A DNA stretch of 32,000 nt from Candidatus Saccharimonadota bacterium (lineage in GTDB: Bacteria; Bacteroidota; Bacteroidia; Cytophagales; Amoebophilaceae): assembly GCF_936981045.1 (NCBI RefSeq), contig NZ_OW441264.1:360001-392000 (forward strand), in the 5' to 3' direction. A program made the translations under genes and the position numbers. The notes beneath the pieces are model-generated. The model had not been told where the DNA came from. It did no database searches and saw nothing but the letters and a program-made list of their open reading frames with translations. Below are positions 2,517 through 25,594 of this stretch, in pieces. How positions within the stretch are numbered: the first letter of the stretch is position 1; every line of letters starts with the position of its first letter.

Positions 2517-2756
2517 ACCTGAGTTCGGGATTAGATTATTTTTTCATTTGATAATCAATATCAATGAAAATTTATAAAATTTATTTTATAGACAGTTAAA
2601 TAGGTAGTTGAATAACAAATAATTCTGGTAATCAGTTTATTATATATATTATATTTATAAAATTAGATATAAAAACTTGTTAAATAGGTGCAAATATTAA
2701 CTAAATAATTGATATTAAATTGTTGTAAATCAGTCAAATAAATCCCGAACTCACGT
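2517..2756 (+). mobile_element. MITE-like non-coding element, copy 1 (orientation A; strand label is arbitrary)
   Basis: Starts ACCTGAGTTCGGGATTAGATT, one change from the family terminus ACGTGAGTTCGGGATT. Ends AATCCCGAACTCACGT at 2756. Length 240 nt, no ORF. Flanks are TAAAA / AAAAA (4 of 5), and the left flank includes the clpB stop codon. Confidence 0.85.
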
Positions 2757-2820
2757 AAAAAGAAAAAGGAAGGTATATATTACTTCTTTCGCTTGATAAA
2801 AATTGAACGAAAAATCAAGC

Positions 2821-2854
2821 CCTGTGTAAAAAGTTGAGAAACTTTTTACACAGG
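2821..2854. terminator. Perfect 15-bp stem / 4-nt loop hairpin, probable bidirectional terminator between clpB and the convergent hydrolase gene
   Basis: CCTGTGTAAAAAGTT (2821-2835), loop GAGA, AACTTTTTACACAGG (2840-2854). T-rich sequence follows on both strands. A second weaker hairpin GCTTGAT..ATCAAGC lies at 2791-2820. Confidence 0.6.
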
Positions 2855-2942
2855 AGCGGGTTTTCTGTTTTTTCATAATATTCCGACAAGGCTGAACGGG
2901 TCCCAGATATTTTCTACTTTTTTACAAGTAGGTCTGTGGTTA

Positions 2943-4112
2943 CTACCTTTCTATACTCAGATTATTGTGTTGACCTATAAAGTCTATAATAGCTGCTATA
3001 GTTTTCTCAGATTCAAATAATGTTTTGCCATGGTTCACTTGGAAATCAGAAAGGATCGGCGTTAAATTGTAACAATGGATTGTTTCTTTAGCAATATATC
3101 TTCTTACATTGTAAGGATAAACAGGGTCATCTTTGGAAGTAGCAAGATTTTCAAAGCTATCTATCCTACATAGTTGACGTTTTACAGGAATCAGAATGTC
3201 ATGTGCTCCATCCTCTTGTCCAGTAGTAAGTTTTGCATAGGCTTTAGCAAATGTATTAACTTGTTCGTTGTCCTCTTCTTCAAAATCAAAGCATTCAGAG
3301 AAGTTATCTATATAACCAGCTATAAGTAATATAGGGATCTTGTGCTTGCCTTCACGTATGAATGCTTTTATATCTGCAGTGCACGTAGCATGTATACGCA
3401 TGTCGCTTACGCTTTGAAAGAATACATGGGCAACTTTCTGAACAACAGGAGTGTTTAGTATCATTCCTAGGGCTTTTGCTTCAGCTAATGAAGTCTTAGG
3501 ATGACCTATAGCTCCTAATCCTGGCTTTGCCTTTTCGTTAAACGCATTTACATCAGATCGACTATTCTCAAATACATCTGTGCCGGATACAGGTGCAAAA
3601 GCGGATATTACAGCTTTAATCTTGAGTTCATGTCCATAGTTGTCTGCTAAAATACAAGCTACTAACTCACCTTGGCTATAGCCAAATATATTGATTGGTA
3701 ACGCTTTACGTTCTTCCTCAGAATATTTCGAATAGCTAGTACGTAATATCTCTTTTACCTCTGAAACAACTTTTCTTGCTTGCTCATCTATTGATAGGCG
3801 TGCTGATGCCCATTCCTCTCTGCATTTTGGCTGAATGATCTCAACAACTTTTTCGAATTGATCCTCCACTGTTTTCTTGATTGCATTACACTCAGACGCA
3901 TCCATAGTAAGGCCATGCAACAATACCAGAACACATTTGAGCAAAGAAGGTCTTGTTTCTTTACTACTAAGTTCAGTTGTTGAGAAACTTATATTTTCCT
4001 TTATTTGTTTGGTTAAACCAGCACCCATTTCGATATGATGATAGGGCCAACAACCATAGAACAGGTAAGCTGCAATTAAAAAAAAGTATTTCTTAAGGTT
4101 AAATGTTAACAC
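2943..4112 (-). CDS. Alpha/beta-hydrolase fold serine esterase/lipase-like protein, possibly a lipoprotein
   Basis: LLHGL oxyanion-type motif followed by nucleophile elbow GYSQG. Candidate Asp (HDILIPV) and His (IHCYNL) are conserved with the neighbouring paralog. If the GTG at 4112 is the start, the N-terminus KKYFFLIAAYLFYGC looks like a signal/lipobox. An alternative ATG start at 4028 would remove it. Confidence 0.7.
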   Translation of the reverse strand: MLTFNLKKYFFLIAAYLFYGCWPYHHIEMGAGLTKQIKENISFSTTELSSKETRPSLLKCVLVLLHGLTMDASECNAIKKTVEDQFEKVVEIIQPKCREEWASARLSIDEQARKVVSEVKEILRTSYSKYSEEERKALPINIFGYSQGELVACILADNYGHELKIKAVISAFAPVSGTDVFENSRSDVNAFNEKAKPGLGAIGHPKTSLAEAKALGMILNTPVVQKVAHVFFQSVSDMRIHATCTADIKAFIREGKHKIPILLIAGYIDNFSECFDFEEEDNEQVNTFAKAYAKLTTGQEDGAHDILIPVKRQLCRIDSFENLATSKDDPVYPYNVRRYIAKETIHCYNLTPILSDFQVNHGKTLFESEKTIAAIIDFIGQHNNLSIER

Positions 4113-4190
4113 AGGTGCATTAGAAAGATTTAAGATACCGACCTCGATTAGGTTAGATTTGCACCTACTTGATAGTAATACATTTATATA

Positions 4191-4430
4191 ACGTGAGTTC
4201 GGGATTTATTTGACTGATTTACAACAATTTAATATCAATTATTTAGTTAATATTTACACCTATTTAACAAGTTTTTATATCTAATTTTATAAATATAATA
4301 TATATAATAAACTGATTACCAGAATTATTTGTTATTTAACTACCTATTTAACTGTCTATAAAACAAATTTTATAAATTTTCATTGATATTGATTATCAAA
4401 TGAAAAAATAATCTAATCCCGAACTCACGT
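4191..4430 (-). mobile_element. MITE-like non-coding element, copy 2 (orientation B)
   Basis: ACGTGAGTTCGGGATTTATTTGACTG ... AATCTAATCCCGAACTCACGT, 240 nt. Flanked by an exact 5-nt direct repeat ATATA / ATATA. Confidence 0.9.
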
Positions 4431-4551
4431 ATATAGATTTTCCAAATTTTTACTATGGATCCTCTTGTAGCTTGTATCTCTTTTACCCTATAATAAGGGG
4501 TATATAGGGGGCTTTAGTATGACCATCTTTATTAGGACTGTGTCCATATCT

Positions 4552-5586
4552 TTATACCAACTGCTGAATAAATTGGATTACATCGGTTAAAATTAAGTCA
4601 GCATAAAGTACCGTTTCACGCTGGTCTACAAATAAATTAGGATCTATAGCTACTAAGTTGCTCTCATGGAGTATCCCCTTATACATACGGCCTTTTATTT
4701 GGGAGCGGCTGGGCCAAATCACAGCCACATGCCTATAGTTTAGGTTGTTCGTATCTATGGGCATCAGGTTATTAAGATCATCTTTCCTTCCTAACTGACT
4801 GGCTAACGGAATTAGGGTATCGTGTCTTCCGCCCTTTTCGCCAGTAATCCATAGCGCATAGGCATCATTTAATGCCTCTATGGCCTTATGCTGGTCAACT
4901 GTTTTCATATTGAATAATCCTGAAAAATCATTCTGATGGGTAGCAATCAACAAACAAGGTAACTCCCTATTATCTTGTAGGAAGCTACATATACCTTGTA
5001 TACATGCACTATTGGGCAGTATATCTTTTAAACCATTTATAGGCACCCAGCGTGGACGTGTAAATAGTAGCATCCATGTCTGTAGGGTCATACTCCATTT
5101 GATTCTAGATAGGGGATAATCTATAAGCTGCAATCCCTTTTCTGCGCTGGCTATAAATTCCTGCACATCCCTTCAGCTGCGCTCAAGGAGTGGTGTGCCC
5201 ATTAGGGGCGCATTAAGGGTAATAATGCCAACTATATTGAGCTGGCTTTTATAGGCTTTTCCTAAAATACAGGCCAATACCCCACCTTGACTATAGCCGA
5301 TGATAATGAGTGGAAAAGGTTGTATTTCTTTTTGATAGCGCATGAGCGCAAGTTGTACCTGTCTAAGCAGGTCTTCTGCTTGTTGATCTATAGATCGTAT
5401 GACAGACTTTAGTCCAACCCTACATGTTGGCTGAATAAGTAGAACCGCGTTTCCAAATTGCTTATTCAACTTGGCTGCAATGGGTTTCAACTCATCTGCC
5501 TTGGCGTATAAACCATGTAAAAGTAAAACCGCAAAAGTAGGTGCTTGGTCTAAAGTGGGTGTACCCATTCTGTTTTTTATACTCAT
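4552..5586 (-). pseudogene. Alpha/beta-hydrolase paralog of 2943..4112, interrupted by one in-frame TGA
   Basis: ORFs 5173..5586 (LLLHGL, GYSQGG) and 4552..5166 (HDTLIPL, LHESNL) are in the same frame. They are separated only by TGA at 5173-5175 plus two codons. They align along their length with the N- and C-terminal halves of the 389-aa neighbour. The aligned codon in the neighbour is CGA (Arg). Confidence 0.8.
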
Positions 5587-5658
5587 CTAGTCTACTTAGT
5601 TCAGATGTAGCCGTTGCGCCAACTTCTTCAGATTAGTGCGCATTACTTTACATACATA

Positions 5659-7518
<1,860 letters not shown>

Positions 7519-7519
7519 A

Positions 7520-8865
7520 GGAAGTGTTCTATAAACTGTGTCAAGGCGATAAAAAGTTATAAATTAATTAAATAAACATTAAAGGTTTTAGACATGGAAG
7601 AAAATAAGAACAATTCCTATGTTGGTTTAGTAGATTACAAATTTCTGGAGGAAAATATTTTGTGCTCTATCCGTTTAGGTAAGCCTTTAATAGGAAAAGG
7701 TGGTGCTTTAACGCCTCTGATAAAAAAGCTTCTAGAGGCAAGTCTAGAAGGTGAAATAGCACACCATTTATCTAGTGATTCAACAGAAAATAATAGAAGA
7801 AATGGAAAAAGCTCTAAAACTTTACGCACAAGTTCTGGTTCCTTTGATCTGCTAACTCCTAGGGATAGGACAGGTAGTTTCGATCCACAAATAGTTAAAA
7901 AGCGTCAAACAAGCCTACATCCTGAGCTGGAAAGCAAGATCTTAAGCATGTTTTCTAGTGGTATGAGCCATAAATCTATAGCCGTTCATGTTGAAGAGAT
8001 CTATGATCATAAAGTATCAGCTGCTGAAATATCATCTATTACAGATAGCTTGTTACCGATAATAAATGAATGGCGTAACCGCCCTCTTCAATCAGTTTAT
8101 CCGATAGTTTTCATGGATGGGATATTTTTTAAGGTAAAAGAAGATGGCAGATGTGTAAGCAAATGCATGTATACCTTATTAGGCATAGATCAAGAGGGTA
8201 AAAAAGAAGTATTGGGATTTATTTGTCTGAAAGTGAGGGGGCTAACTTCTGGTTGGGTGTACTTAACGAGCTTAAGGAAAGAGGTGTAGAAGATATCCTT
8301 ATTGCCTGTGTTGATGGCCTAAAAAGCTTTCCTTCAGCCATAAATAGCGTTTTCCCTAATGCACAAGTGCAGGTCTGTGTAGTACATCAGATACGAAACT
8401 CACTCAAGTATGTAGCTAGCAAAGACGTAAAACGTTTTTTAACTGATTTAAAGCAAATATATCAAGCTTCAAGTAAGGAAGTTGCTGAGCATTATCTATT
8501 GGAATTAGAAGAAAAATGGGGGGGGAAATATCCAATGGTTACCAAATCTTGGCAAAATAATTGGGAACATTTGTCTGGTTATTTTAAGTATTCAGATCCT
8601 GTCAGAAGGCTAATTTATACCACCAATCCTATAGAAAGCTTGCATAGGCAGATTAGGAAGTTTACCAAGACAAAAGGAGCGTTTACCAGTATAAATGCTT
8701 TGTATAAATTAGTATATTGTGCCATAAAGAAGATCGAGGATAAATGGACTATGCCGCTGCGAAACTGGGCGTTGACCATATCTCAGATAGACATCTTTTT
8801 TTCCGGTAGATTAAAAGAGACGTTGAGATGAACAGGAGATGTGACACAGTTTATAGAACACTTCC
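7520..8865 (+). mobile_element. IS256-family insertion sequence (about 1.35 kb)
   Basis: Perfect 24-nt inverted termini GGAAGTGTTCTATAAACTGTGTCA (7520-7543) and TGACACAGTTTATAGAACACTTCC (8842-8865). Flanked by an 8-nt direct repeat GCTATTGA (7512-7519) / GCCATTGA (8866-8873), 7 of 8. Confidence 0.88.
7594..8831 (+). pseudogene. IS256-family (Mutator-type) transposase, split by a frameshift near 8221-8224
   Basis: ORF 7594..8289 ends ..KKEVLGFICLKVRGL.. out of frame. ORF 8223..8831, in the -1 frame, continues with the family-typical LSESEGANFWLGVLNELKERGVEDILIACVDGLKSFPSAI. There is no canonical slippery heptamer at the junction (GGATTTATTTGTCTG). Confidence 0.8.
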
Positions 8866-8874
8866 GCCATTGAG

Positions 8875-9296
8875 CGATCTTCTACGGTCATTACCTCTAG
8901 TGGCCTTGTTCCACCTTTAGCTTTGGGTATTTCTATCAACCTGCTTGAGGTAAATTTGTATAGCTTTGCGCGTAGTTGCTGCTGCAATTTATTGATAATC
9001 TTTGCCTCACCTTGATCTATTATATCACTTATGCTTTTACCATCAATCCCTGCTGAACCTTGATTTGCTTTGACTTGACGCCAAGCTTCCCAAAGTACAT
9101 CTTTTAGATAAATTTTATCATATATACTATAAAATCTGACTTTCTTACATTGCTTGGATTTAAGATATAGAGTTCTTTGGAGTTGCCGAACTTTTAATGT
9201 TCCGTTCATAGCTTTAGGGCAATCAGACATTCTCAACTCTTTTAAACTCGTTAATTGAAGTAGGGTCCCTTTCCTCTTGAGTGGTTTCCTAATCAA
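8875..9296 (-). pseudogene. Group II intron reverse transcriptase/maturase, N-terminal fragment
   Basis: This is part of listed ORF 8811..9296. The last 21 codons of that ORF (..SMAEVFYKLCHISCSSQRLF) are read from the IS4-tip duplicate and the IS256 terminus, so they are not RT sequence. The probable real start is ATG at 9230 (MSDCPKAMNG..). Confidence 0.7.
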
Positions 9297-9704
9297 TACG
9301 AACGGTATTATAGACCCCGCGGACTTCTGATATGACCCTTATTGATTTCGCTTTACTTATACAATAAAGTTTCCAGTGACCTACTGGATTCATATCAGAT
9401 CTCCCGGACTATGATGTGAAACATTCATAGCGTGCAACCCCTAACACCCCGGCACTTGTATGATGGTCATGGTCTATTTTTTCCATCCTACTATCAGCCT
9501 TCCTGTAGCCACTAGACAGTCGGCAAATGCGCTTAAACGGCTTAAAGAGGCTAATTTGGGTTCACTTTTGTTGTAGCCCGCTATTTTGCAGATGCATTTA
9601 AAGGTAATTTAAACCTGTGAATCACCTCACAAATCCAACCTCCTGCTAGACTCCCGAAATAGACAAATTAGAGTCAGGGGACTTACACCCCATTTGTTGC
9701 ACAC
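8875..9704 (-). mobile_element. Group II intron, 5' portion only (RNA domains I-IV region plus truncated reverse-transcriptase ORF)
   Basis: From about 9704 the minus strand reads GTGTGCAACAAATGGGGTGTAAGTCCCC, a GUGYG-type 5' end with a typical early domain I hairpin. Structured non-coding sequence follows, about 400 nt long. The ORF then reads ..YLKDVLWEAWRQVKANQGSAGIDGKSI...RLIEIPKAKGGTRPLEVMTVEDR, typical of intron-encoded RT/maturases. It is cut at 8875 by the duplicated IS4 tip. Domains V/VI are absent. Confidence 0.7.
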
Positions 9705-9714
9705 CTGTGCCGGC

Positions 9715-10382
9715 GTGCAATGGCCGCAGACTTAAAACACTTAAAACTAAGCATAGGTTTTAGCCGTTTTTTGATAAACCTATGATCTTGTTCAACTCTA
9801 TTATTCAAGTATTTGTTTTGAAATATTTGAATAGTATGATCTTGATCAAGTTCTGTATTGATCGTATCAAGGGCAGCTTTATTACTACCGCTTTTGTCAA
9901 TTACTACTTTCTTAAGAATATTATTTTCTGTGATCGCCTTACGAAAAAAAGAAAAAGCTGCAGACTTGTCTCTATGCTCAGATAGAAAAAAGTTAACTGT
10001 ATCACCATAACGATCTACTGCTCTATATAAATAGATCCACTTCCCGTTTAGTTTAACATAGGTTTCATCCATTCTCCAACTACGACCAACTGGTCATTTT
10101 CTTTTTCTTACTGCTTCATCTATAAGAGGAACAAACTTAATAACCCATCTCTGTAAAGTAGAGTGATCGACTTTGGCGCCTCTTATACGCATCATTTCTT
10201 CTAAATCCCGATAGCTCAAAGAAAATCGACATTTCATATATACAAATAACAGGATCACCTCTGCTGAAGAACAATAGCCTTTAAAATAAGGTAATAATTT
10301 GGGCGAAATATTAAACATAGTAACTACTTTTTTAACTACAGATACTAAAATAATGATTTTTTAGAATAAACGCGACAGAACC
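9715..10382 (-). mobile_element. IS6-family element, decayed copy C (3'-truncated transposase gene with in-frame stop)
   Basis: Right terminus ..TTAGAATAAACGCGACAGAACC ends at 10382, as in the intact copies. ORFs 10094..10318 and 9683..10072 are in the same frame, separated by TGA 10094-10096 where the intact copies have CGA. Similarity to the intact copies stops near 9716, so roughly the last 35 codons and the left terminus are missing. Confidence 0.85.
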
Positions 10383-10469
10383 GGCATCTATTCAGGGCGA
10401 TTTACTGATCTGACTCCCGCACGAAAAAAGAAAACACACACTTTATAAAACCTAATAAACCATCCTTTT

Positions 10470-11693
10470 TTATCGGATTTTTAAAGTGACCAGGGTAGCA
10501 ATGGCTAGTAAAATGCTAAGGATTAAAAACCGTGTTACAATCTTTGATTCATGCCATCCTAATTTCTGATAGTGGTGATGCAGAGGTGCCATTTTAAAAA
10601 TTCTTCTGCCTGTTCCATAATGTTTTTTGGTGAACTTAAAATAACTGGTTTGTAATATCACCGATAGATTTTCCATGAGAAATATACCACATAGCATGGG
10701 AATCAGCAGTTCCTTTCGAATACAAATGGCTACTACGGCAATAATGGCGCCAATGGTTAAGCTGCCCGTGTCGCCCATAAAGATTTGTGCAGGATAAGCA
10801 TTATACCAAAGAAAACCCATACATGACCCCACAAATGCACAACAAAATATAGTAAGCTCTCCCAAATTTGGGATATACATAATATTTAAATATTGGGCAA
10901 ATATTATGTGGCCAGATAAGTAAGCAAGGACGGCCAACGTAGTACCAACAATTACAGAAGTACTAGCCGTTAATCCATCAAGCCCATCTGTTAAATTAGA
11001 GGCATTTGAAACAGCCGCAATAATAAAAGCTACCATAGCCATGTAAACGATCCATGTATAGTTTGCATTGCCTAGCAAGAGGGCACTTATTTGTGCATAA
11101 TCGAGTTCATTTTCTTTGAAAAAAGGGATAGTTGTTTTAGTGGATTTAATATCGTTGTATCCAGAGGATACTTGGTCCACTAGTCCAGTGGGTGTTTCCT
11201 GAGCAATGGATACCTCACGTATGACTACGGCCTTATGTAGATAAAGGGTCATACTTACAATACAACCTAAAGCAATTTGGCCTAATAGTTTGATCCATCC
11301 ATTCAATCCATTTTTTTGTTTTTTAAATACCTTGATGTGGTCGTCCAAAAAGCCAACTAACCCCATCCAAATAGTAGTGGTTAACAATAGGATGATGTAT
11401 ATGTTATGCAATTTTGAAAAGAGTAACGTGGGTACCACGGTTGCCAGTATAATAAGCATACCCCCCATGGTAGGGGTATGGGCGTTCTTTTTGGCTTCAT
11501 TAAATCCTAAGGGTCGATTGGGTTCAGTGATTTGTCTTTTGTTTAAATAGTCTATAAAACGTTGCCCTAGTAGAAAGGTAATGGTAAAAGAGCTAAGTGT
11601 GGCCATAGCTGCTCGAAAAGAAATATACTTAAATAAGCCTGTCCCAGGCCAGTGAAAAGTAGCCTGTAGATATTTGAATAAATAGTACAACAT
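10470..11693 (-). CDS. mraY: Phospho-N-acetylmuramoyl-pentapeptide transferase
   Basis: 407-aa polytopic membrane protein with the characteristic MLYYLFKYL N-terminus and the motifs FLDDHIKV, NASNLTDGLDGL, MGDTGSL and APLHHHY. Confidence 0.93.
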   Translation of the reverse strand: MLYYLFKYLQATFHWPGTGLFKYISFRAAMATLSSFTITFLLGQRFIDYLNKRQITEPNRPLGFNEAKKNAHTPTMGGMLIILATVVPTLLFSKLHNIYIILLLTTTIWMGLVGFLDDHIKVFKKQKNGLNGWIKLLGQIALGCIVSMTLYLHKAVVIREVSIAQETPTGLVDQVSSGYNDIKSTKTTIPFFKENELDYAQISALLLGNANYTWIVYMAMVAFIIAAVSNASNLTDGLDGLTASTSVIVGTTLAVLAYLSGHIIFAQYLNIMYIPNLGELTIFCCAFVGSCMGFLWYNAYPAQIFMGDTGSLTIGAIIAVVAICIRKELLIPMLCGIFLMENLSVILQTSYFKFTKKHYGTGRRIFKMAPLHHHYQKLGWHESKIVTRFLILSILLAIATLVTLKIR

Positions 11694-11721
11694 ATTTTAG
11701 TAAAAAGGAATATGTGCGCAG

Positions 11722-11759
11722 CTTTTTGCTTGATAAAAAGGCTTTTATCAAGCAAAAAG
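11722..11759. terminator. Near-perfect palindromic hairpin between the acyl-CoA ligase gene and mraY
   Basis: CTTTTTGCTTGATAAAA(AGG)CTTTTATCAAGCAAAAAG. The A/T runs inside the stem make it symmetric on both strands. It lies 21 nt after the ligase stop and 29 nt before the mraY start. Confidence 0.55.
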
Positions 11760-11779
11760 TAATATAAAAACTCCTTTAT

Positions 11780-13420: not shown

Positions 13421-13533
13421 AGTATGTAAAACAATTTTAGTGTTTTCTCAAACCCTCTTGCAATATAGTATAATTTTATAGAATGCGATGCGGATCATTT
13501 AAAATTTACCTATCTATCCAGATGATGCTATAA

Positions 13534-13774
13534 ACGTGAGTTCGGGATTAGATTATTTTTTCATTTGATAATCAATATTAATAAAAATTTATAAAATTTG
13601 TTTTATAGACAGTTAAATAGGTAGTTGAATAACAAATAATTCCGATAATCGGTTTATTATATATATTATATTTATAACAATTAAATATAAAAACTTGTTA
13701 AATAGGTGCAAATATTAACTAAATAATTGATATTAAATTGTTGTAAATCAGTCAAATAAATACCGAACTCACGT
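13534..13774 (+). mobile_element. MITE-like non-coding element, copy 4 (orientation A)
   Basis: ACGTGAGTTCGGGATTAGATT ... AAATACCGAACTCACGT, 241 nt. Exact 5-nt direct repeat TATAA / TATAA in the flanks. It lies 124 nt upstream of smpB. Confidence 0.9.
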
Positions 13775-15142: not shown

Positions 15143-15269
15143 TTATATAAAAGGTATGATGGGTGTAATCGTGCGCGCTATTCAATATTTTTGTTTATTT
15201 TTAAATAAACTATGCGCCCGCTATCTTTTATGGAAATACATGCCTTAAAGAGAAAATTTTGCACATGAT

Positions 15270-16439: not shown

Positions 16440-16447
16440 TGCTTTTT

Positions 16448-17140
16448 TTATGCTTCTACTACAGCTATTGTGGCAATACTCACTTCCGATGCACCTGATG
16501 CTAAAAGCGCATGGGTGCAAGAGGCTAATGTAGCCCCTGTAGTGAGAATATCATCTACCAGAAAAAGATGTTTGCCTGTTAGTAAACCTGGTTCTATGAC
16601 TTTAAAGGCGCCTTCAAGATTGGTTATACATTCTGTTTTGTTTTTCTTGGTTTGGGAGGGCGTATCGCCGATGCGTGCTATACATTTTGGGTAGAAGGGG
16701 ATGTGTAATGCAGCAGAAAGTCCTTTTGCAAAAAAGTCACTTTGGTTGTATCCCCGTTCTTTGAATCTTTTGGGGTGTAAAGGAATCGCTACGATCGCAT
16801 CGATGGTTTGCATAATCGACAGCTGATTCAAGATATTTCCATAGTGCCATCCTAGTATCTCTCCAATTTTGGGTTGGTTGTTATACTTCATTGCAAAGAG
16901 CACTTGCTCAAAATGACTCTTCTTTCTTAACTTGTAAAGCGCAAATCCATAGGTTATAGTTGCTTTATCTATAAAATGGTTGGTGATAGCGCTATCTACT
17001 AAGGTATGGGAATCTGTTTCTGGAAATGAACTGAAACAAATGGTACAAATCAATGTTTCTCCATGCACAAGTGTATGGTTGAACCTTGCGCATAGGGGTG
17101 GGAACAACACATCTAATAGCCCGGCTATAAATCGTTTCAT
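16448..17140 (-). CDS. comF: ComF-family phosphoribosyltransferase-domain protein
   Basis: N-terminal Cys-rich segment (LCARF..LICTIC) and C-terminal PRPP-binding motif LFLVDDILTTGATL. Confidence 0.8.
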   Translation of the reverse strand: MKRFIAGLLDVLFPPLCARFNHTLVHGETLICTICFSSFPETDSHTLVDSAITNHFIDKATITYGFALYKLRKKSHFEQVLFAMKYNNQPKIGEILGWHYGNILNQLSIMQTIDAIVAIPLHPKRFKERGYNQSDFFAKGLSAALHIPFYPKCIARIGDTPSQTKKNKTECITNLEGAFKVIEPGLLTGKHLFLVDDILTTGATLASCTHALLASGASEVSIATIAVVEA

Positions 17141-17212
17141 GGTGTATTTTATATGCTCTTTATTTCTTGATAAAAAAGTAAGATAAAAATTCCTTTTAAA
17201 AGTCTATTTTTT

Positions 17213-18475
17213 ATGCCCGATAGAACCATTCCACCAAAATTTAAAGCAATTGAAACTATTGACTTTCCATCGCCGGAAAGGCATATACTTTCGAATGGGA
17301 TGCCGCTTTATCTCCTAAATATGGGCAGTCAACCCATTATAGAATTAGAGTTGATTTTTAAATCGGGTAGTTGCTATGAGCGGCATCCAGGTGCAGCCTA
17401 TTTTACTGCTGCTATGTTACTAGAGGGTACTGTAACCAAAAGTACTCAAGATATTGCCCACATCATCGATTATTATGGTGCAACTATTGGCACGCGAGTA
17501 CAGAAGGACTTTTGCACCATTTCTCTTTCCACGCTTGCTAAGCATCTTAGTCCCGTGTTAGACTTATTAGTAGAGATACTATTGACCGCTAGTTTTCCTG
17601 AAAAATCACTCCGATTGCTGAAAAATGTAAAAGCGCAAGCCATTCAAATGGCCGATAAGAAGAATAATCAGGTAGCCTATAAGCGATTTTGTACAGCGCT
17701 CTTTACAGCAGCACATCCTTATGGAAGGCATCTAACCGTGCAAGATGTTGCTGGCATTCAACGAGCCGATTTACACCACCATTATGAGCAAGTACTCTTT
17801 GCGCATGGTTCTGCTTTTGTGAGTGGATGGGTTACTCCAGCCGCCTTACAACGCATCAAACAATCCCTAGAACAGCTAACCCCAACAAAAGATTTGCAAG
17901 TAGGTCTAATGCCATGTAGCAATCCTACTGAAAAAGTAGACTTAGTGGATGGGCAACATTTGCAGTCTGCCATTGTAATCGGTAAAAAATTATTGGTCAA
18001 AAAGGAACCAGATTTTTTACCCATGGTTGTGGTCAATACCCTTTTAGGTGGTTATTTTGGTTCTCGGTTGATGCGGAACATTCGAGAAGACAAAGGCTAT
18101 ACTTATGGGATTCATTCCAGTATGGTAGCTTTGCTACAAGCTGGTTACCTAGCCATCACTACAGAAGTAGCGCAAGAAGTGACTCAGGCAACCATCCAAG
18201 AAATTTATAAAGAAATAGAAATATTACAGCATGAACAGATTCCAGAGGAAGCCTTACAAAATGTTAAAAATTACTTACTGGGTCACTTTTTAACAACCAT
18301 TAACGATCCCTTTGCTATCATGCAAAAGTTTCAAGCAGCCTACCTGCATGGCTTAGACCAAAGTTATTATGCTACATTTTTCCATCAGGTGCGTCACATA
18401 ACCCCTCTAGAAATTAGAAACTTAGCACAAAAATACTTATCTTTAGATACCTTTACAGAGGTGGTTGTGCGCTGA
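17213..18475 (+). CDS. M16 (pitrilysin/insulinase) family peptidase homolog lacking the HxxEH zinc motif
   Basis: 420 aa with the M16 two-domain layout (..GSRLMRNIREDKGYTYGI..). The position of the zinc motif reads GAAYFTAAMLLEG rather than G.AHxxEH, so this is probably a non-catalytic subunit type. Confidence 0.75.
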   Translation: MPDRTIPPKFKAIETIDFPSPERHILSNGMPLYLLNMGSQPIIELELIFKSGSCYERHPGAAYFTAAMLLEGTVTKSTQDIAHIIDYYGATIGTRVQKDFCTISLSTLAKHLSPVLDLLVEILLTASFPEKSLRLLKNVKAQAIQMADKKNNQVAYKRFCTALFTAAHPYGRHLTVQDVAGIQRADLHHHYEQVLFAHGSAFVSGWVTPAALQRIKQSLEQLTPTKDLQVGLMPCSNPTEKVDLVDGQHLQSAIVIGKKLLVKKEPDFLPMVVVNTLLGGYFGSRLMRNIREDKGYTYGIHSSMVALLQAGYLAITTEVAQEVTQATIQEIYKEIEILQHEQIPEEALQNVKNYLLGHFLTTINDPFAIMQKFQAAYLHGLDQSYYATFFHQVRHITPLEIRNLAQKYLSLDTFTEVVVR

Positions 18476-18623
18476 TGCACCTAACTTTGTAGTAGGAGGA
18501 GCGACTATATAGCGCTTTCATTGCCTTTAATTTGCATTTTATCCAATAAGGGGGTATATTTGGGGCCTTTAGTTTTTTAGGGCCTCAAGTTTTTTTGTTG
18601 GTTCAACTTTTTCTTTAAAAAGC

Positions 18624-19073
18624 GTGGATTATATCAGTTATAAGACAAAATATGCTAACAAGCAAAGTGTTAACAAACAATGGATTGTTGTTGATGCTTC
18701 ATTTCAGCCGTTGGGTAGATTCGCTAGCCGGCTTGCGTACATCATTCGTGGAAAGCATAAGCCCAATTTTACGCCTCATGTAGATGGAGGGGATCATGTT
18801 ATCGTTTTGAATGCTGATAAAATAGTTTTATCGGGTAGTAAATCGGTAAAAAAAACCTATACCACTTATTCGGGTTACCCTGGTGGGTTAAAGCGTGCTA
18901 CACTTCAAGAAGTTCAAGCGGTCAACCCCAAACGTGTGATAGAGCATGCTGTAAAAGGTATGTTGCCTAAAAATAGGTTGGGCAGAAGGTTGTTGCACAA
19001 CTTACATGTTTGTGAAGGATCTGTTCATCCATATGCAGCTCAAAAACCAACCCCAGTAACCCTAAAGTACTAA
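18624..19073 (+). CDS. rplM: 50S ribosomal protein L13
   Basis: KQWIVVDASFQPLGRFASRLAYIIRGKHKPNFTPHVDGGDHVIVLNADKI. GTG start at 18624. Confidence 0.93.
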   Translation: MDYISYKTKYANKQSVNKQWIVVDASFQPLGRFASRLAYIIRGKHKPNFTPHVDGGDHVIVLNADKIVLSGSKSVKKTYTTYSGYPGGLKRATLQEVQAVNPKRVIEHAVKGMLPKNRLGRRLLHNLHVCEGSVHPYAAQKPTPVTLKY

Positions 19074-19083
19074 TTATTAACGG

Positions 19084-19473
19084 ATGGAGACAGTCAATGC
19101 AGTAGGTCGAAGAAAGACCGCCGTAGCTAGGGTTTATCTTATGAAAGGGACAGGAGATATTGTCATTAATCATAAGCCACTTTTAGATTATTTCCTAGTA
19201 GAAGAAATTAGTCTAATCGTTAAGCAACCTTTGGAAAAATTAGATAAGGCAGGCCAGTATAACCTGAAAGTTAACGTTGTAGGTGGGGGATTGCGTGGGC
19301 AGGCTGAAGCCATTCGCTTGGGTATTGCTAGGGCGCTTTGTAAATTGGACTTAGAAAACAATAGGCCTATCTTGAAGAAAGAAGGCTTCTTAACCAGGGA
19401 TGCTAGAGTCGTGGAGCGTAAAAAATATGGTCGTAAAAAGTCGAGAAAGAAATTCCAGTTTACAAAACGTTAG
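19084..19473 (+). CDS. rpsI: 30S ribosomal protein S9
   Basis: GRRKTAVARVYL near the N-terminus and the C-terminal KKYGRKKSRKKFQFTKR. Confidence 0.95.
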   Translation: METVNAVGRRKTAVARVYLMKGTGDIVINHKPLLDYFLVEEISLIVKQPLEKLDKAGQYNLKVNVVGGGLRGQAEAIRLGIARALCKLDLENNRPILKKEGFLTRDARVVERKKYGRKKSRKKFQFTKR

Positions 19474-19510
19474 ACCTATTCTCATATGTTATTATTTGTT
19501 ATTACCCATA

Positions 19511-20410
19511 ATGATAAAATTAGAATTCAAAGCACTACTTGATGCGGGCGTCCATTTTGGTCATCTGACTAGGAAATGGCATCCTAAGATGGCTCCCTTT
19601 ATTTTTATGAAGCAGAATGGTATACATATCATTGATCTGAACCAAACGATTACCTGTATGCAAGAGGCTGCTTTGCAACTCAATGCAATGGCACAAGCTG
19701 GGAAAAAGATTTTGTTTGTGGCTACTAAAAAACAAATTAAAGCCTCTGCAGAGCAGGCAGCACAAGACTTAGGTATGCCTTATGTTACAGAACGATGGCT
19801 TGGTGGTACACTTACTAATTTTGTAAATACGCGCAAGCTATTAAAGCGCATGCTTTCCATAGAAAAAAACATGCATATGGCTGCTTATAAAAACTTAGCC
19901 AAAAAAGAAAGGTTGGTTATTGCGCGAGAGCAAGAGAAGCTCAATAGAATATTGAAGGGATTAGCCAATGTTACAAGGTTGCCATCTGCACTATTTGTAA
20001 TTGATATTAAGGAGGAGCATATTGCTGTTGAGGAAGCTCGAAAATTGGGTATTCCGGTTTTTGCCCTTGTAGATACCAATACAAATCCAGATATCGTTGA
20101 TTTTCCTATTCCTGGTAATGATGATGCATTCCGTTCTGTTGATATTGTAGTGCGTTATCTCGCTGAGGCAATTAAAGAAGGTATAGCATCCTATAGAAAA
20201 GAGAAAGCAGAAACAGCTCCTAAAAGGGAGGAAGAATCCCTCAGTAACGCAGGAAACAAGGTGCTTCCTAAAAGGGGTATAAGAGTGGTGCAGGGCGTGG
20301 TAATCAAGAGAACCGTTCCTTCTAAAGCTAAAGTTTCTAGACCTGAAGCTAAGGAAAAAGTGACCGCAGCTCCTGCGTCACCTAAGGGCCAACCAGAAAA
20401 AGAAAAATAA
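19511..20410 (+). CDS. rpsB: 30S ribosomal protein S2 (with a Lys/Glu/Pro-rich C-terminal extension)
   Basis: MIKLEFKALLDAGVHFGHLTRKWHPKMAPFIF is the normal S2 N-terminus. The listed ORF start at 19400 overlaps rpsI and is not credible, so the ATG at 19511 in the same frame is used. Confidence 0.92.
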   Translation: MIKLEFKALLDAGVHFGHLTRKWHPKMAPFIFMKQNGIHIIDLNQTITCMQEAALQLNAMAQAGKKILFVATKKQIKASAEQAAQDLGMPYVTERWLGGTLTNFVNTRKLLKRMLSIEKNMHMAAYKNLAKKERLVIAREQEKLNRILKGLANVTRLPSALFVIDIKEEHIAVEEARKLGIPVFALVDTNTNPDIVDFPIPGNDDAFRSVDIVVRYLAEAIKEGIASYRKEKAETAPKREEESLSNAGNKVLPKRGIRVVQGVVIKRTVPSKAKVSRPEAKEKVTAAPASPKGQPEKEK

Positions 20411-20442
20411 TCATTAAGTCATTGCGATATTCTAAATAATAT

Positions 20443-21276
20443 ATGGTTGTTAGAGCAGAAGAAGTAGCTGCACTGAGAAAAAGAACAGGTGCAGGAATGA
20501 TGGATTGTAAAAAAGCATTGATTGAGGCAGGTGGTGATGTTGAGCAAGCCATTGATTTGCTTAGAAAGAAAGGGCAAAAAATACTTGCAAATCGCGTAAC
20601 ACATCATGCAAGTGAAGGCGCTGTTTTTGCTTGTGCAAGTTTAGACAATAGGGAGTCTTTCTTATTGGCGCTTAACTGTGAGACCGACTTTGTAGCTAAA
20701 AACGAGCTGTTTTTGCAATTGGGCCAATCAATTTTGGAGGTTGCAGTAGTGCATAAACCTATTTCCATAGCCGCACTAGAAGCCTTGCCATTGGGCAATG
20801 GAACCGTTCAGGAGGCCATTCTGGCATCTACTGGTACCACTGGTGAAAAAATTACAATTTCTACTTATGAAACCTTAGCCGCTGAGGTAACGGTTTCCTA
20901 TATCCATACGGGTAATCGTTTAGCTGTTTTGGTAGCCTTACAAGGCGCTCAAGGTGAACAAGTGATCGCTGCAGGTAGAGATGTTGCCATGCAAGTAGCT
21001 GCTATGAATCCAGTAGCGGTTGATAAAGATCAAGTTGACCCAGCTGTCATAGAAAGGGAATCAGCCGTTATCCAAGCACAAATTATGGATGCAGGGTATG
21101 ATGGCGCTAAGGCCGACAAAATAACACAAGCTAGATTACATAAGTTTTTTCAGGAAAATACCCTATTGCAGCAACCATTTGTGAAGCATGGTAAGTTGAC
21201 TGTAGCCCAATACCTTAAGACCGTTGCGCCATCTTTAACGGTTACTGCATTCAAACGCATTGATGTGGGTGCATAA
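20443..21276 (+). CDS. tsf: Translation elongation factor Ts
   Basis: N-terminal VAALRKRTGAGMMDCKKALIEAGGDVEQAIDLLRKKG and the conserved rpsB-tsf gene order. Confidence 0.93.
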   Translation: MVVRAEEVAALRKRTGAGMMDCKKALIEAGGDVEQAIDLLRKKGQKILANRVTHHASEGAVFACASLDNRESFLLALNCETDFVAKNELFLQLGQSILEVAVVHKPISIAALEALPLGNGTVQEAILASTGTTGEKITISTYETLAAEVTVSYIHTGNRLAVLVALQGAQGEQVIAAGRDVAMQVAAMNPVAVDKDQVDPAVIERESAVIQAQIMDAGYDGAKADKITQARLHKFFQENTLLQQPFVKHGKLTVAQYLKTVAPSLTVTAFKRIDVGA

Positions 21277-21376
21277 TTTCTCCTTTTATGCTAAAAAAGC
21301 CACTTTTTGTTTCCTTTCCCTGCACTAGGGTATATGCACCCTGATAGCAATTTAATAACCCCTAAGAGGCACCTAA

Positions 21377-22483
21377 ATGAGTAAAAAGGCACGTGTATTG
21401 GTAGCCATGAGTGGTGGCATAGACAGTTCTGTATCCGCTGTGATGTTGCATGAGCAGGGCTACGAAGTAGTAGGTATTACTATGAAAACATGGAGTTATG
21501 CGGGTAGTGGTGGAAAGAAAAAAGAGACGGGATGTTGTAGTTTAGATGCCATCAATGATGCAAGGCATGTGGCGGTTGAATTGGGTGTTCCCCATATTGT
21601 TGTGGATATAAGAGAAGCATTTGGGGAGCATGTAATTGACCATTTTAAATCTGAATATCTAGCTGGTAGAACCCCAAATCCATGCGTATTGTGCAATACT
21701 CATATTAAATGGGATGCACTTTTGCAACGTGCTAATCAGTTAGGTTGTGATTATCTAGCAACCGGTCATTATGCAAAGGTACGAGAAGAGCGGGGGCGTT
21801 ATATGATATCTAAGGGATTAGATCCTAAAAAAGACCAATCCTATGCCCTGTGGGGGATCTCTCAAGAGAGTCTTAGTAGGACCTTACTCCCGTTAGGTGG
21901 GTTTACCAAATCTTTTATTCGTGCATTTGCTGCTGAACGTGGATTCACAGATTTGGTGAATAAGTCTGAATCATATGAAATATGCTTTATTCCTGATAAT
22001 GATTACCGTGGATTTTTAAAGCGACAAGTTCCTGGATTGGAAGAAACGGTTAAAGGGGGGGAGTTTATATTAGAAGATGGTAGGGTAGTGGGCCATCATG
22101 AAGGATATCCCTTTTATACCATTGGTCAGCGAAAAGGGTTAAATATTACTTTGGGTTATGCAGTATATGTAATAGCTATACAGAAGGAGACCAATCGAGT
22201 AGTATTGGGTACTTTTGATCAATTGCGTCGAGATGGTATGTATGTACACCAACTCAATTTATCCAAATATCCAGATCTAAAGGGCAGAAAATTAGATACC
22301 CTTACTAAGGTGAGATATAATGACCAAGGTATGCCTGCTGTGATTGAGCAAGTAGGTGATCAAATGCATGTATTTTTTGGTGCTGGTGTTCATGCCATTA
22401 CACCTGGCCAAGCGGCTGTTTTTTATGAGGCAGAAGATGTAATAGGAGGAGGATGGATTGTCTCGGCTTTTCAAAAAAGGTAA
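21377..22483 (+). CDS. mnmA: tRNA-specific 2-thiouridylase
   Basis: PP-loop VLVAMSGGIDSSV, plus NPCVLCN, ATGHYA and DQSYAL motifs. Confidence 0.93.
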   Translation: MSKKARVLVAMSGGIDSSVSAVMLHEQGYEVVGITMKTWSYAGSGGKKKETGCCSLDAINDARHVAVELGVPHIVVDIREAFGEHVIDHFKSEYLAGRTPNPCVLCNTHIKWDALLQRANQLGCDYLATGHYAKVREERGRYMISKGLDPKKDQSYALWGISQESLSRTLLPLGGFTKSFIRAFAAERGFTDLVNKSESYEICFIPDNDYRGFLKRQVPGLEETVKGGEFILEDGRVVGHHEGYPFYTIGQRKGLNITLGYAVYVIAIQKETNRVVLGTFDQLRRDGMYVHQLNLSKYPDLKGRKLDTLTKVRYNDQGMPAVIEQVGDQMHVFFGAGVHAITPGQAAVFYEAEDVIGGGWIVSAFQKR

Positions 22484-22537
22484 GGGTGTCTGTTGACGTC
22501 ATGCTGTCAACTTAAGAGTGACACCTTCAGCAAATCT

Positions 22538-23370
22538 GGTTCTGTCGCGTCTATAGTTTTCTTAGTATAGGTTTTTCGTTTAAGTCAAATTTTGGATATT
22601 ATGCGGCCATTAAGATAGCAAAGTTCTCAAAAGTAGAAAGATGATTTTTAGCTCCTCTTACTTGTCCTTTTTGAATCATACGAATGTTTTCTATCCCTGA
22701 AATAGTAATGGAAGCAGAATAAAAATTCTTAAAACCCAGCATAGGTTTTATCCGTTTTTTGATAAACCTATGATCTTGTTCAACTCTATTATTCAAATAT
22801 TTGTTTTGCAATATTTGAATGGTATGATCTTGATCAAGATCTGTATTGATCGCGTCAAGGGCAGCTTTATTACTACCGCTTTTGTCAATTACTACTTTCT
22901 TAGGAATATTATTTTCTGTGATCGCCTTTCGAAAAAAAGAAAGCGTTGAAGACTTGTCTCTATGCTCAGATAGAAAAAAGTCAACTGTATCACCATAACG
23001 ATCTACTGCTCTATATAAATAGATCCACTTCCCGTTTAGTTTAACATAGGTTTCATCCATTCTCCAACTACTACCAATTGGTCGTTTTCTTTTTCTTACT
23101 GCTTTATCTATCAGAGGAACAAACTTAATAACCCATCTCTGTAGCGTAGAATGATCAACTCTTGCGCCTCTCATACGCATCATCTCTTCCAAATCTCTAT
23201 AGCTCAAGGAAAAACGACACTTCATGTATACAAATAACAGGATGACTTCTGATGAAGAACAATAACCTTTAAAATATGGTAATAACTCGGGAGAAATATT
23301 AAACATAATAACTACTTTTGTAAATACCGATACTAAAATAATCATTTTTTAGAATAAACGCGACAGAACC
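22538..23370 (-). mobile_element. IS6-family insertion sequence, copy A (833 nt)
   Basis: Termini GGTTCTGTCGCGTCTAT (22538-) and ..ATAAACGCGACAGAACC (-23370) are inverted repeats. No 8-nt direct repeat in the flanks (GCAAATCT / AAAATTTG). Confidence 0.9.
22599..23306 (-). CDS. IS6-family (IS26-like) DDE transposase
   Basis: WRMDETYVKLNGKWIYLYRAVDRYGDTVDFFLSEHRD and NNRVEQDHRFIKKR match the IS6-family catalytic core. The listed ORF extends to 23345, but the ATG at 23306 (MFNISPELL) gives the family-typical ~235-aa length. Confidence 0.9.
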   Translation of the reverse strand: MFNISPELLPYFKGYCSSSEVILLFVYMKCRFSLSYRDLEEMMRMRGARVDHSTLQRWVIKFVPLIDKAVRKRKRPIGSSWRMDETYVKLNGKWIYLYRAVDRYGDTVDFFLSEHRDKSSTLSFFRKAITENNIPKKVVIDKSGSNKAALDAINTDLDQDHTIQILQNKYLNNRVEQDHRFIKKRIKPMLGFKNFYSASITISGIENIRMIQKGQVRGAKNHLSTFENFAILMAA

Positions 23371-23465
23371 AAAATTTGTCCGGATAAATCAGTCCACTAT
23401 AGCTCAATCATTTGCATATTAAGATAACAGCTTTTTGCTTAATAAGAAAGTAACATATAAAATGC

Positions 23466-24341
23466 TTATGGCTTTCTAGCATCCAATCCCCAGTAAAACT
23501 TTTCACGTAACACATCAAAAATAGTTGTATGGCCAAGCTGCACCAACTTTAATGAAAAAGGAGCCTTTTTAACTACAAATGGTTGGTGAACAGCCATGGG
23601 CATCATTCTTCCATCTACGGCAACCAGGATCTCTTTATTGCAGCTTTTAACTACAAAACTTAATAAAGCAGTGTCGGGAACAACCAATGGACGTAAGGCC
23701 AAATTATGAGGGCTTATAGGGGTAATAACTAAGCTATTGGAGCGGGTCAACACGATAGGACCTGAACAACTCAGTGAATAAGCAGTAGAACCTGTAGGTG
23801 TAGCAATAATCAGCCCATCTACTCGATAGGTAGTAATGAATTGTTCATCTATATAGGCATCAACGGTTAGTAAATTAACCTTATCTTGCTTAAGCAGCGC
23901 TACTTCGTTAAGCGCACAAGCAATAGGAAGATCTGAACCATATACAGCCAAAAGTATCCGCTCTTCTAGGGTATAATTGCCTTCAAAAAAATCTACCAAT
24001 CCAGCAATAACTTCCGTATGGGTTACCCTAGTTAAAAATCCCAAATTACCTGTATGCATGCCTAGTACAGGAATCGCATGATCTTTAAGATAATGGATGG
24101 TTTCTAACAAGGTTCCATCCCCACCTAAACTGATGATCAACTCTAAATCTAGTTGTAGATCTAACTGCTCTAGATCGAAAACGGGTAGTTGGCTCAGCAA
24201 AGCAGTAGATCCATTCAGTAATGCAGCTAAAATATTAGAAACCATTACGCGCTTTTGGTAAGCTTCTACTAAAGAGCAGACCTGCTCTAAAAATGCTAGA
24301 CTAACTGGACACACTTTTCTGCTATGTATGGCAATCGACAT
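23466..24341 (-). CDS. nadK: NAD kinase
   Basis: 291 aa with the GGDGTLL motif (SLGGDGTLLETI), NLGFLT, and ATPTGSTAYSLS. Confidence 0.9.
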   Translation of the reverse strand: MSIAIHSRKVCPVSLAFLEQVCSLVEAYQKRVMVSNILAALLNGSTALLSQLPVFDLEQLDLQLDLELIISLGGDGTLLETIHYLKDHAIPVLGMHTGNLGFLTRVTHTEVIAGLVDFFEGNYTLEERILLAVYGSDLPIACALNEVALLKQDKVNLLTVDAYIDEQFITTYRVDGLIIATPTGSTAYSLSCSGPIVLTRSNSLVITPISPHNLALRPLVVPDTALLSFVVKSCNKEILVAVDGRMMPMAVHQPFVVKKAPFSLKLVQLGHTTIFDVLREKFYWGLDARKP

Positions 24342-24558
24342 ATAGCTGTTATTAAAGATCTTAATACCACATCACAAACAGCTAAAAAATCTAACGTTGA
24401 TGTAGGTAGTGAAACGTTTTTAAAAAGTTGCGCTTTAAATAAGTTCCAAACTTACCGTAATAATTTGAATACAACTAATTTTTACTTAAAAGATGAACCC
24501 TACACATGAACCCTACACCGTTTAATTGATGCTTAAAAGTATAAAAGTAAGCCTATTA

Positions 24559-24799
24559 ACGTGAGTTCAGGATTTATATGACTGATTTACAACAATTTAA
24601 TATCAATTATTTAGTTAATATTTGCACCTATTTAACAAGTTTTTATATCTAATTTTATAAATATAATATATATAATAAACTGATTACCAGAATTATTTGT
24701 TATTCAACTACCTATTTAACTGTCTAATAAAACAAATTTTATAAATTTTCATTGATATTGATTATCAAATGAAAAAATAATCTAATCCTGAACTCACGT
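24559..24799 (-). mobile_element. MITE-like non-coding element, copy 5 (orientation B)
   Basis: ACGTGAGTTCAGGATTTATATGACTG ... AATCTAATCCTGAACTCACGT, 241 nt. Both termini carry the compensating G-to-A / C-to-T change. No flanking duplication (TATTA / ATACA). Confidence 0.88.
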
Positions 24800-24974
24800 A
24801 TACATATGGAAGACATAGATAGCACAACCATACTACATAATGCTTTCTATCGGCCCAAAGATGATAGATAAAAGGCATTTATGCCTTTTACTTATTAAAG
24901 TAATTATTTTATATTGCTTATCCTTTTGTTTATTGTCTATCGGGTTAATTTTTACCGATCAGCTGTATGGGTAT

Positions 24975-24999
24975 CTTAAGCCCCCACCATTGGCTGAAC
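24975..24999 (+). repeat. 25-nt exact direct repeat, copy 1 (IS4-terminus-like architecture)
   Basis: CTTAAGCCCCCACCATTGGCTGAAC, identical to 25858-25882. Confidence 0.8.
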
Positions 25000-25033
25000 A
25001 TATACAATAATTTTTTAACGTTTTTGGCTTAGT

Positions 25034-25336
25034 ATGAACTATAAAAATAAAATGCAACCTATTAAAAAAGTATTGTTAGACCCCTATTTTATTTTAACCA
25101 TCTTGTTTGCTGTATGGATGCTCTTTTTGGATTATCAAAATGTATTTGTACAGTATAGATTATACAAATGTTGGCAAAAGTTGCAAGCAGAGGCTATCGA
25201 TTATAAATTTCAGATTCAGCAGATTAAGAAAGAAAAAAAAGAGCTTATTGATAATATGGATTTCTTAGAGAAGGTTGCGCGTGAAAAATATTATATGAAG
25301 CGAGCGAAAGAAGATTTGTATATTATACGGGAATAG
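25034..25336 (+). CDS. ftsB: Septum formation initiator family protein (FtsB/DivIC-like)
   Basis: 100 aa with a single N-terminal TM segment (YFILTILFAVWMLFL), a coiled-coil, and the conserved C-terminal EKVAREKYYMKRAKEDLYII. Confidence 0.75.
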   Translation: MNYKNKMQPIKKVLLDPYFILTILFAVWMLFLDYQNVFVQYRLYKCWQKLQAEAIDYKFQIQQIKKEKKELIDNMDFLEKVAREKYYMKRAKEDLYIIRE

Positions 25337-25354
25337 CATTGTACTAAGGTATTA

Positions 25355-25594
25355 ACGTGAGTTCGGGATTAGATTATTTTTTCATTTTATAATCAATATT
25401 AATAAAAATTTATAAAATTTGTTTTATAGACAGTTAAATAGGTAGTTGAATAACAAATAATTCTGATAATCAGTTTATTATATATATTATATTTATAAAA
25501 TTAGATATAAAAACTTGTTAAATAGGTGCAAATATTAACTAAATAATTGATATTAAATTGTTGTAAATCAGTCACATAAATACCGAACTCACGT
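25355..25594 (+). mobile_element. MITE-like non-coding element, copy 6 (orientation A)
   Basis: ACGTGAGTTCGGGATTAGATT ... AAATACCGAACTCACGT, 240 nt. Exact 5-nt direct repeat TATTA / TATTA. It starts 18 nt after the ftsB-like stop. Confidence 0.9.

Follow-up and report, generated by a model that had tools for sequence, protein, structure and literature searches.

Insertion sequences (ISs) of the IS982 family end in inverted repeats that start with AC, and are flanked by a short target duplication of 3-9 bp. Among the MITEs (miniature transposable elements with inverted repeats) that derive from ISs, the Correia elements of Neisseria and the RUP elements of S. pneumoniae follow the same general design as the repeats considered here. 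The closest described system is MITECca01, reported in the hand annotation of Cardinium cOegibbosus-W744x776 (cOegib; genome OW441264) by Halter, Hendrickx, Horn and Manzano-Marin (2022, Microbiol Spectr; PMC9769881). According to this study, MITECca01 is about 240 bp long, lacks a transposase and has inverted repeats very similar to those of ISCca4, an IS982-family element with 68 copies in cOegib, 7 of them intact. Its 169 copies make up 3.5% of the cOegib chromosome and lie mostly in intergenic regions or within other mobile elements, and blastn detected it in no other Cardinium strain. The present analysis concerns six repeats in a window of 32,000 nucleotides (nt) from the same genome (contig NZ_OW441264.1, positions 360,001 to 392,000, assembly GCF_936981045.1), the proteins of which match Cardinium cOegib exactly (phylum Bacteroidota, family Amoebophilaceae; a spider symbiont). 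With a probability of roughly 0.93, these six repeats of the cOegib chromosome belong to MITECca01, which is 240 bp long, non-autonomous and derived from the IS982-family ISCca4. MITECca01 having been described in 2022, the finding is correct but ordinary, and already known.

A similar design is found in MITEAba12 of Acinetobacter (PMC6382973) and in the MITEs of Coxiella (PMC5896051), which, likened by their descriptions only, also measure less than 300 bp, carry terminal inverted repeats (TIRs) from a resident IS, are flanked by a target duplication and occur in many, mostly intergenic, copies. By contrast, their parent IS families and target duplications differ from those of MITECca01, and their sequences are taken, from the descriptions, to be unrelated to it.

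The 16-nt terminus ACGTGAGTTCGGGATT is present at 12 sites in the window with at most one mismatch, against 0.08 expected by chance, and these sites pair into six inverted pairs. Repeat finding in the window likewise recovered the two orientation classes, A and B (Table 1). The original prediction, made from the letters of the window, had described six A+T-rich copies of about 240 nt with 16-nt inverted termini and no open reading frame (ORF), and all six were found again at exactly the positions that it gave. Once all are turned the same way, the copies align over 240-241 nt with only 20 variable columns and a pairwise identity of 95.0-98.3%, and at either end the similarity among them stops sharply at ACGT. 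Between copies 2 and 3 there are 8 differences and no insertion or deletion, close to the earlier hand count of about nine substitutions. The G+C content of the copies is 18-20%, compared with 31-43% per kb across the window. The 16-nt TIRs are 94-100% complementary in all six copies, and the longest ORF inside the element has 24 codons, leaving it without coding capacity; the IS982-type DDE transposase (NF033520/PF13612) that would make it an autonomous member of the family is absent from it. The TIRs, the lack of an ORF and the multiple near-identical copies bear out the view that this is a non-autonomous MITE.

The repeats were identified as MITECca01 because the terminus of copy 3 is identical to the published left inverted repeat (IRL) of this element, and because the 3' sequence and the length match. 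Fig. S1 of PMC9769881 gives for MITECca01 the IRL ACGTGAATTCGGGATT, a 3' part ending in GTAAATCAGTCAAAATAAATCCCGAACTCACGT and a total length of 240, and the 3' 122 nt of the window copies differ from the machine-read text of this figure at 7-12 of 126 columns. The published element and the window copies therefore agree in genome, length, 16-nt inverted repeats, 3' sequence and inferred parent, ISCca4. The 5-bp duplications, the empty site, the two subfamilies, the internal duplication of about 84 nt and the gldB deletion, all described below, are absent from the main text of PMC9769881. The caveat attached to the original prediction, that the repeat could prove to be the conserved end of a known IS described under another name, does apply, the terminus being the conserved ISCca4 end and the element MITECca01; a reading of the raw sequence alone had recognized a mobile element that was already published, and had its boundaries, termini and duplications right. 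The same genome also contains MITECca02 and an 'ISCca4 MITE-like' remnant (PMC9769881, Fig. S1), which have the same 16-nt termini as MITECca01, and the MITECca02 terminus variant ACCTGAGTTCGGGATT is also found on window copy 1. About 90-105 nt from the left end of ISCca4 are retained in these two elements, but in none of the six window copies.

The link to ISCca4 was examined through its annotated copy on plasmid pcBtQ1 of Cardinium cBtQ1, which is 1,000 bp long, starts with ACGTCAGTTTTGGATTAGA and ends with TCTAATCCGAAACTCACGT, the reverse complement of its right end being ACGTGAGTTTCGGATTAGA. This copy is flanked by TATTA/TATTA, the same 5-bp TA-rich duplication as that of the MITE, and its right end aligns with the first 24 nt of the MITE at 88% identity over 25 columns. 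Its transposase scores 270 bits against NCBIfam NF033520 (IS982; cut-off 130). A database search returned IS982 transposases of 293 amino acids (aa) that are named as those of cOegib, carry the DDE_Tnp_1_3 domain, form clusters of 9 and 2 members and are 81-82% identical to the pcBtQ1 enzyme. ISCca4 and MITECca01 share termini of the type AC(G/C)T(G/A/C)AGTT..GGATTAG, a 5-bp TA-rich duplication and the host genus; they differ in that ISCca4 measures about 1 kb and encodes a DDE transposase of 291-293 aa, whereas MITECca01 encodes nothing. The interior of the MITE is A+T-rich and unrelated to ISCca4, only the 16-nt TIRs and a few subterminal bases being kept from the IS. The same type of terminus is found in IS982 elements of Leptospira interrogans (ACGTGAGTTCGACG..., ACGTGAGTTCGACGTAAGGA) and Prevotella nigrescens (ACCTGAACTCGGGATAAG), so that the IS982-type terminus ACGTGAGTTCGGG is common to elements of Cardinium, Leptospira and Prevotella; the duplication seen for the MITE and for ISCca4 is 5 bp. 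A tblastn search of the window for remnants of the ISCca4/IS982 transposase (E ≤ 1) gave none, which, together with the full-length transposases of cOegib, places the putative mobilizing enzyme elsewhere in the genome, as had been proposed.

Evidence for transposition is provided by the target duplications and by an empty site. In the common orientation, the flanking pentamers are TATAT/TATAT for copy 2, TATAA/TATAA for copy 4 and TATTA/TATTA for copy 6, while those of copy 1 (TAAAA/AAAAA) agree at four of five positions, and copies 3 and 5 have no flanking 5-nt duplication, a distribution identical to that noted earlier. Perfect pentamer matches at this spacing occur at 0.17% of window positions, rising to 3% at positions where both flanks consist of A/T only, and three perfect duplications among six copies correspond to P of about 1e-6 window-wide, or about 5e-4 if both flanks must be A/T-only. 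Copy 1 is inserted 2 nt past the stop codon of clpB (a ClpB-type AAA+ chaperone by Pfam), and this stop codon, which forms part of the duplication, is preserved by the insertion.

The element is absent at the site of copy 4 both from a 10-kb Logan contig of the related Cardinium strain SRR29821040 (L014) and from the genome of the Cardinium of Nabis limbatus, which share with the window the gene order glycosyltransferase, AMP-dependent ligase, smpB. The contig reads ...AATGCTATAAAGTTTAC..., i.e. GCTATAA-AGTTTAC with a single TATAA, and the window reads ...GATGCTATAA, then the 241-nt element, then TATAAGGCTTAT..., with the left flank GCTATAA. At this precise empty site the duplicated pentamer stands only once, and together with the duplications the site upholds the claim of true transposition. 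An empty site for copy 6 was sought on the related contig L016, which runs into a different repeat just short of the position, and the proteins next to copies 2, 3 and 6 gave no cluster relatives at ≥90% identity from which further empty sites could be obtained.

The two copies without duplications lie in broken genes, in keeping with the earlier suggestion of later rearrangement at such copies. Strain SRR30809926, which is 93% identical to the window in DNA sequence, has an intact gldB gene (349 aa, with a GldB_lipo domain) after its NAD kinase gene. In the window, the 927 bp between the two gldB remnants are gone and copy 5 stands in their place; the loss of gldB is a MITE-associated deletion, for which recombination between two MITE insertions is the simplest reading. 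Copy 3 is fused, by its left end in the common orientation, to an enolase (eno) pseudogene fragment that ends ...NQI at the copy and is cut on its other side by an IS4 terminus (6052). The statement that all copies are intergenic therefore needs correcting for copy 3, which truncates the enolase fragment, and for copy 5, which lies inside the remains of gldB. A 7-nt sequence, TATGTAT, is shared by the flanks of copies 3 and 5, and the two were considered as halves of one insertion; this was rejected, since the flank that copy 3 shares shows no homology to gldB and both broken genes abut the left element end. The sequence to the right of copy 5 was also considered as an enolase C-terminus upstream of ftsB, and is instead the end of gldB. 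AGGCTTA, found downstream of copies 4 and 5, was examined as a sign of a larger repeat and is accompanied by no extended similarity.

Table 1. Positions in the window of the six copies assigned to MITECca01, their flanking pentamers, and the gene remnants next to copies 3 and 5.
Feature	Coordinates	Strand	Flanking 5-mers (+ strand)	Remarks
MITECca01 copy 1, orientation A	2517..2756	+	TAAAA 2512-2516 (includes the clpB stop codon) / AAAAA 2757-2761	carries the variant left terminus ACCTGAGTTCGGGATT
MITECca01 copy 2, orientation B	4191..4430	-	ATATA 4186-4190 / ATATA 4431-4435, perfect	between two esterase/lipase paralogues
MITECca01 copy 3, orientation B	5659..5898	-	no duplication	terminus ACGTGAATTCGGGATT
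MITECca01 copy 4, orientation A	13534..13774	+	TATAA 13529-13533 / TATAA 13775-13779, perfect	divergent intergenic region between the AMP-dependent ligase gene and smpB
MITECca01 copy 5, orientation B	24559..24799	-	no duplication	stands where 927 bp of gldB are missing
MITECca01 copy 6, orientation A	25355..25594	+	TATTA 25350-25354 / TATTA 25595-25599, perfect	18 nt past the ftsB stop codon
gldB 5' remnant	24529..24558	+		first 10 codons (MLKSIKVSLL); abuts copy 5
gldB 3' remnant	24806..24871	+		last 21 codons and stop; 6 nt beyond the other end of copy 5
Enolase pseudogene fragment	5899..6051	-		Enolase_C profile positions 162-211, 50 residues

The best-supported mechanism is mobilization of the MITE in trans by the ISCca4 DDE transposase, as deduced from the shared termini and duplications. 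In this mechanism, transposase from intact ISCca4 copies elsewhere in the genome would bind both MITE termini and move the element into A+T-rich 5-bp targets resembling TAWWA or TANTA, and repair of the staggered cut would produce the 5-bp duplication. The many copies could then serve as portable homology and deletion sites, which would account for duplication-less copies in broken genes such as gldB and eno. Recognition of the MITE ends by the ISCca4 transposase, with two mismatches in 16 positions, is plausible on comparison of the termini, and we infer that MITECca01 may still be active.

Several observations weigh against this assignment to ISCca4 and the proposed mechanism. The likeness of ISCca4 to the MITE is confined to about 25 terminal nt, with nothing else significant, and the window contains no transposase for the MITE. 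The published IRL of cOegib ISCca4, ACCTAAGTTCGGGATTAGC (PMC9769881, Fig. S1), differs from the MITE consensus at 2 of 16 positions (ACCTAAG versus ACGTGAG). The copies differ from one another by 2-5%, so that the burst is not very recent. A comparative empty site is available for one of the six copies only, and 6 unexplained nt (ATACAT, 24800-24805) separate copy 5 from the gldB 3' homology, so that a recombination of two MITEs at gldB would not have been clean. Some of these points would fit mobilization of an IS982-type MITE by another, lost or unsampled, variant resembling ISCca4 or ISCca1 with exact ACGTGAG termini, the present copies being immobile fossils. The MITE consensus ACGTGAGTTCGGG is nearer to the pcBtQ1 ISCca4 right end ACGTGAGTTTCGG than to the cOegib ISCca4 IRL ACCTAAGTTCGGG, and the divergence of the copies, as well as a decayed relative on the plasmid of another strain (see below), point the same way. 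This alternative is nevertheless considered unlikely: the ACCTGAG variant on copy 1 indicates that the termini tolerate such variation, the 7 intact copies of ISCca4 are accompanied by MITECca02 with ACCTGAG termini (PMC9769881), and MITECca01, at 169 copies, is the most abundant element in the genome.

The interior of the element is made up of two direct repeats, each about 84-90 nt long, which have diverged and still agree in 64 of 94 columns (alignment score 27.5, compared with 9.4 +/- 3.7 for shuffles); both contain GTTAAATAGGT. Three diagnostic substitutions, at element positions 46, 50 and 113, divide the copies into the subfamilies 1/2/5 and 3/4/6, a split that is independent of copy orientation and location and that successive transposition from different source copies would give. 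The RNA of the element folds better than shuffled sequences on both strands (z = -3.8), and the stable part of this fold consists of 12 bp formed between the termini. A repeat of structural or regulatory kind (REP-like, a small RNA gene, or a promoter or terminator module), dispersed by recombination or duplication, could account for such a fold, for the proximity of the copies to gene ends and for a sigma-70-like TTGATA-N18-AATAAT facing outward at the left end. It is a very improbable explanation, however, as the fold is essentially the pairing of the TIRs, the element has no match in Rfam even at E ≤ 1 and no tRNA, the Bacteroidota -7 box TAnnTTTG is absent from both of its strands, promoter-like (sigma-70-like) sites are fewer than in shuffles (5 versus 16.3), the flanks of different copies are unrelated, and the precise empty site, the duplication and the IS982-type termini favour transposition. 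With no -7 box, no excess of sigma-70-like sites and no Rfam match, the idea, raised in the original prediction, that the copies supply promoters or terminators finds no support in these searches. The same lack of a tRNA or Rfam match led to rejection of the idea that the terminus belongs to a tRNA or to a known RNA family.

Relatives of the element outside cOegib were sought by sensitive blastn and terminus searches. Plasmid p_B of the Cardinium of Dermatophagoides farinae carries a decayed, near-full-length relative (72% over 230 nt, E = 3e-24) with degenerate termini, a partial relative is present on pcBtQ1 (73% over 104 nt), and in Cardinium cBcalN2 a solo terminus agrees exactly with nt 1-28 of MITECca01. 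Among species-representative genomes, a degenerate 22-nt version of the terminus matched 8 loci, with about 1-2 estimated by chance, one of them in Cardinium cBcalN2 and the others in unrelated metagenome-assembled genomes (MAGs), most being solo ends by ordinary host genes. These wide matches are explained by the terminus type that IS982 elements of other bacteria share. In metagenomes, the sole match to the 22-nt terminus was a 297-bp MITE in a Bacteroidota MAG (contig L018, 10200-10496), with the terminus ACGTGAGTTCGGG, an unrelated interior and TAAAATA/TAAAATA flanks. Another Bacteroidota MAG (L004, 3325-3883) contains a nested pair of MITEs with the ACGTGAGTTCGGG terminus, one of 182 bp inside one of 377 bp, with unrelated interiors. 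A degenerate 32-mer from the interior of MITECca01 had 0 matches in metagenome contigs, and an 18-mer of the terminus had 0 matches in viral contigs, on which ground a phage origin was rejected.

The terminus family is older and wider than cOegib, and the MITE lineage probably is too, whereas the burst of 95-98% identical copies is specific to cOegib. Evenly balanced is the further proposal of an older MITECca01-like family in Cardinium, of which the sequences on p_B and pcBtQ1 would be decayed relics, with plasmid carriage between strains before the cOegib burst. If true, MITECca01 would not be purely a cOegib-specific invention, and it would be directly tied to gene loss in cOegib through the 927-bp gldB deletion. 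The plasmid relatives also bring up mobilization by the Rpn/PD-(D/E)XK 'putative transposases' found near related sequences in other Cardinium strains, with Rpn/PDDEXK_2 genes lying 0.4-2.3 kb from the diverged relatives on Cardinium plasmids, and an Rpn gene about 0.5 kb from the solo terminus in cBcalN2. Of the explanations considered, this has the lowest probability: the Rpn gene at the cBcalN2 locus (L003) has its own, different long inverted repeats, the window contains no Rpn gene, the MITE termini match IS982 elements across phyla, and no Rpn-encoding unit bounded by ACGTGAGTTCGGG termini and 5-bp duplications was seen. Rpn genes recur in the few Cardinium loci examined (two on pcBtQ1 alone), and their proximity may well be chance.

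With the repeats assigned to MITECca01, the analysis makes small additions to the picture of how MITEs and their parent ISs erode endosymbiont genomes, namely the 5-bp TA-rich target, the empty site in a sister strain, the gldB deletion and eno truncation at MITE copies, and evidence of relatives older than the cOegib lineage; it alters no open question.

Some features of the loci outside cOegib were noted in passing. Loci L005, L006, L007, L008, L009 and L010 each have a solo 22-nt terminus, usually after TA, beside ordinary host genes, and in L010 it takes up the 13 nt that separate the stop codons of a convergent gene pair, overlapping both stops; these solo termini are probably relics of IS982-type elements. 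At L003 (1830-3429), the Rpn/PD-(D/E)XK gene (2147-3022) is enclosed by long inverted repeats that match imperfectly (77% complementarity over 114 nt, with further adjoining arms), and the solo MITECca01-type terminus is about 100 nt away. The hairpin motif CTTTTGCTTGAT.AAAAAGTAG of this locus is seen again at the L016 end, and a variant of it inside the MITE of L018.

The remainder of the window contains housekeeping genes (ClpB-type chaperone, smpB, rplM-rpsI-rpsB-tsf, mnmA, NAD kinase and mutL) and other mobile elements, comprising one IS4, one frameshifted IS256 and three IS6 copies, the termini of which are present where they had been reported. The IS256-type element (7520-8865) has its transposase divided between two ORFs that overlap (7594-8289 and 8223-8831), owing to a frameshift or to programmed slippage, and one of the IS6 copies (9683-10072) has a transposase ORF of 129 aa, compared with 248 aa in the other two. 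Copy 2 is flanked by esterase/lipase paralogues at 2943-4112 and 4552-5586 (Palm_thioest / alpha-beta hydrolase matches), the second of which is split into ORFs of 204 aa and 137 aa and is probably a pseudogene. Downstream of the esterase gene, before copy 1 is reached, lies a strong 16-bp hairpin (2820-2855; TCCTGTGTAAAAAGTT...AACTTTTTACACAGGG followed by a T run), probably the terminator of the esterase gene. The 25-nt sequence CTTAAGCCCCCACCATTGGCTGAAC occurs as an exact direct repeat on either side of ftsB and copy 6 (24975-24999 and 25858-25882) and is also present in the related strain (L016, near position 390); beside its first copy, the window is without 815 bp of L016 (407-1221) that contain two small ORFs. 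Finally, a palindromic element of 189 nt (25606-25794), present once in the window and 12 nt from copy 6, carries inverted termini of 27 nt (TTATGGCCGCCGATAAAGGAATTTGGC / GCCAAATTCCTTTATCGGCAGCCATAA) and, further in, a second inverted repeat (25656-25676 / 25730-25750), and may be another type of MITE.

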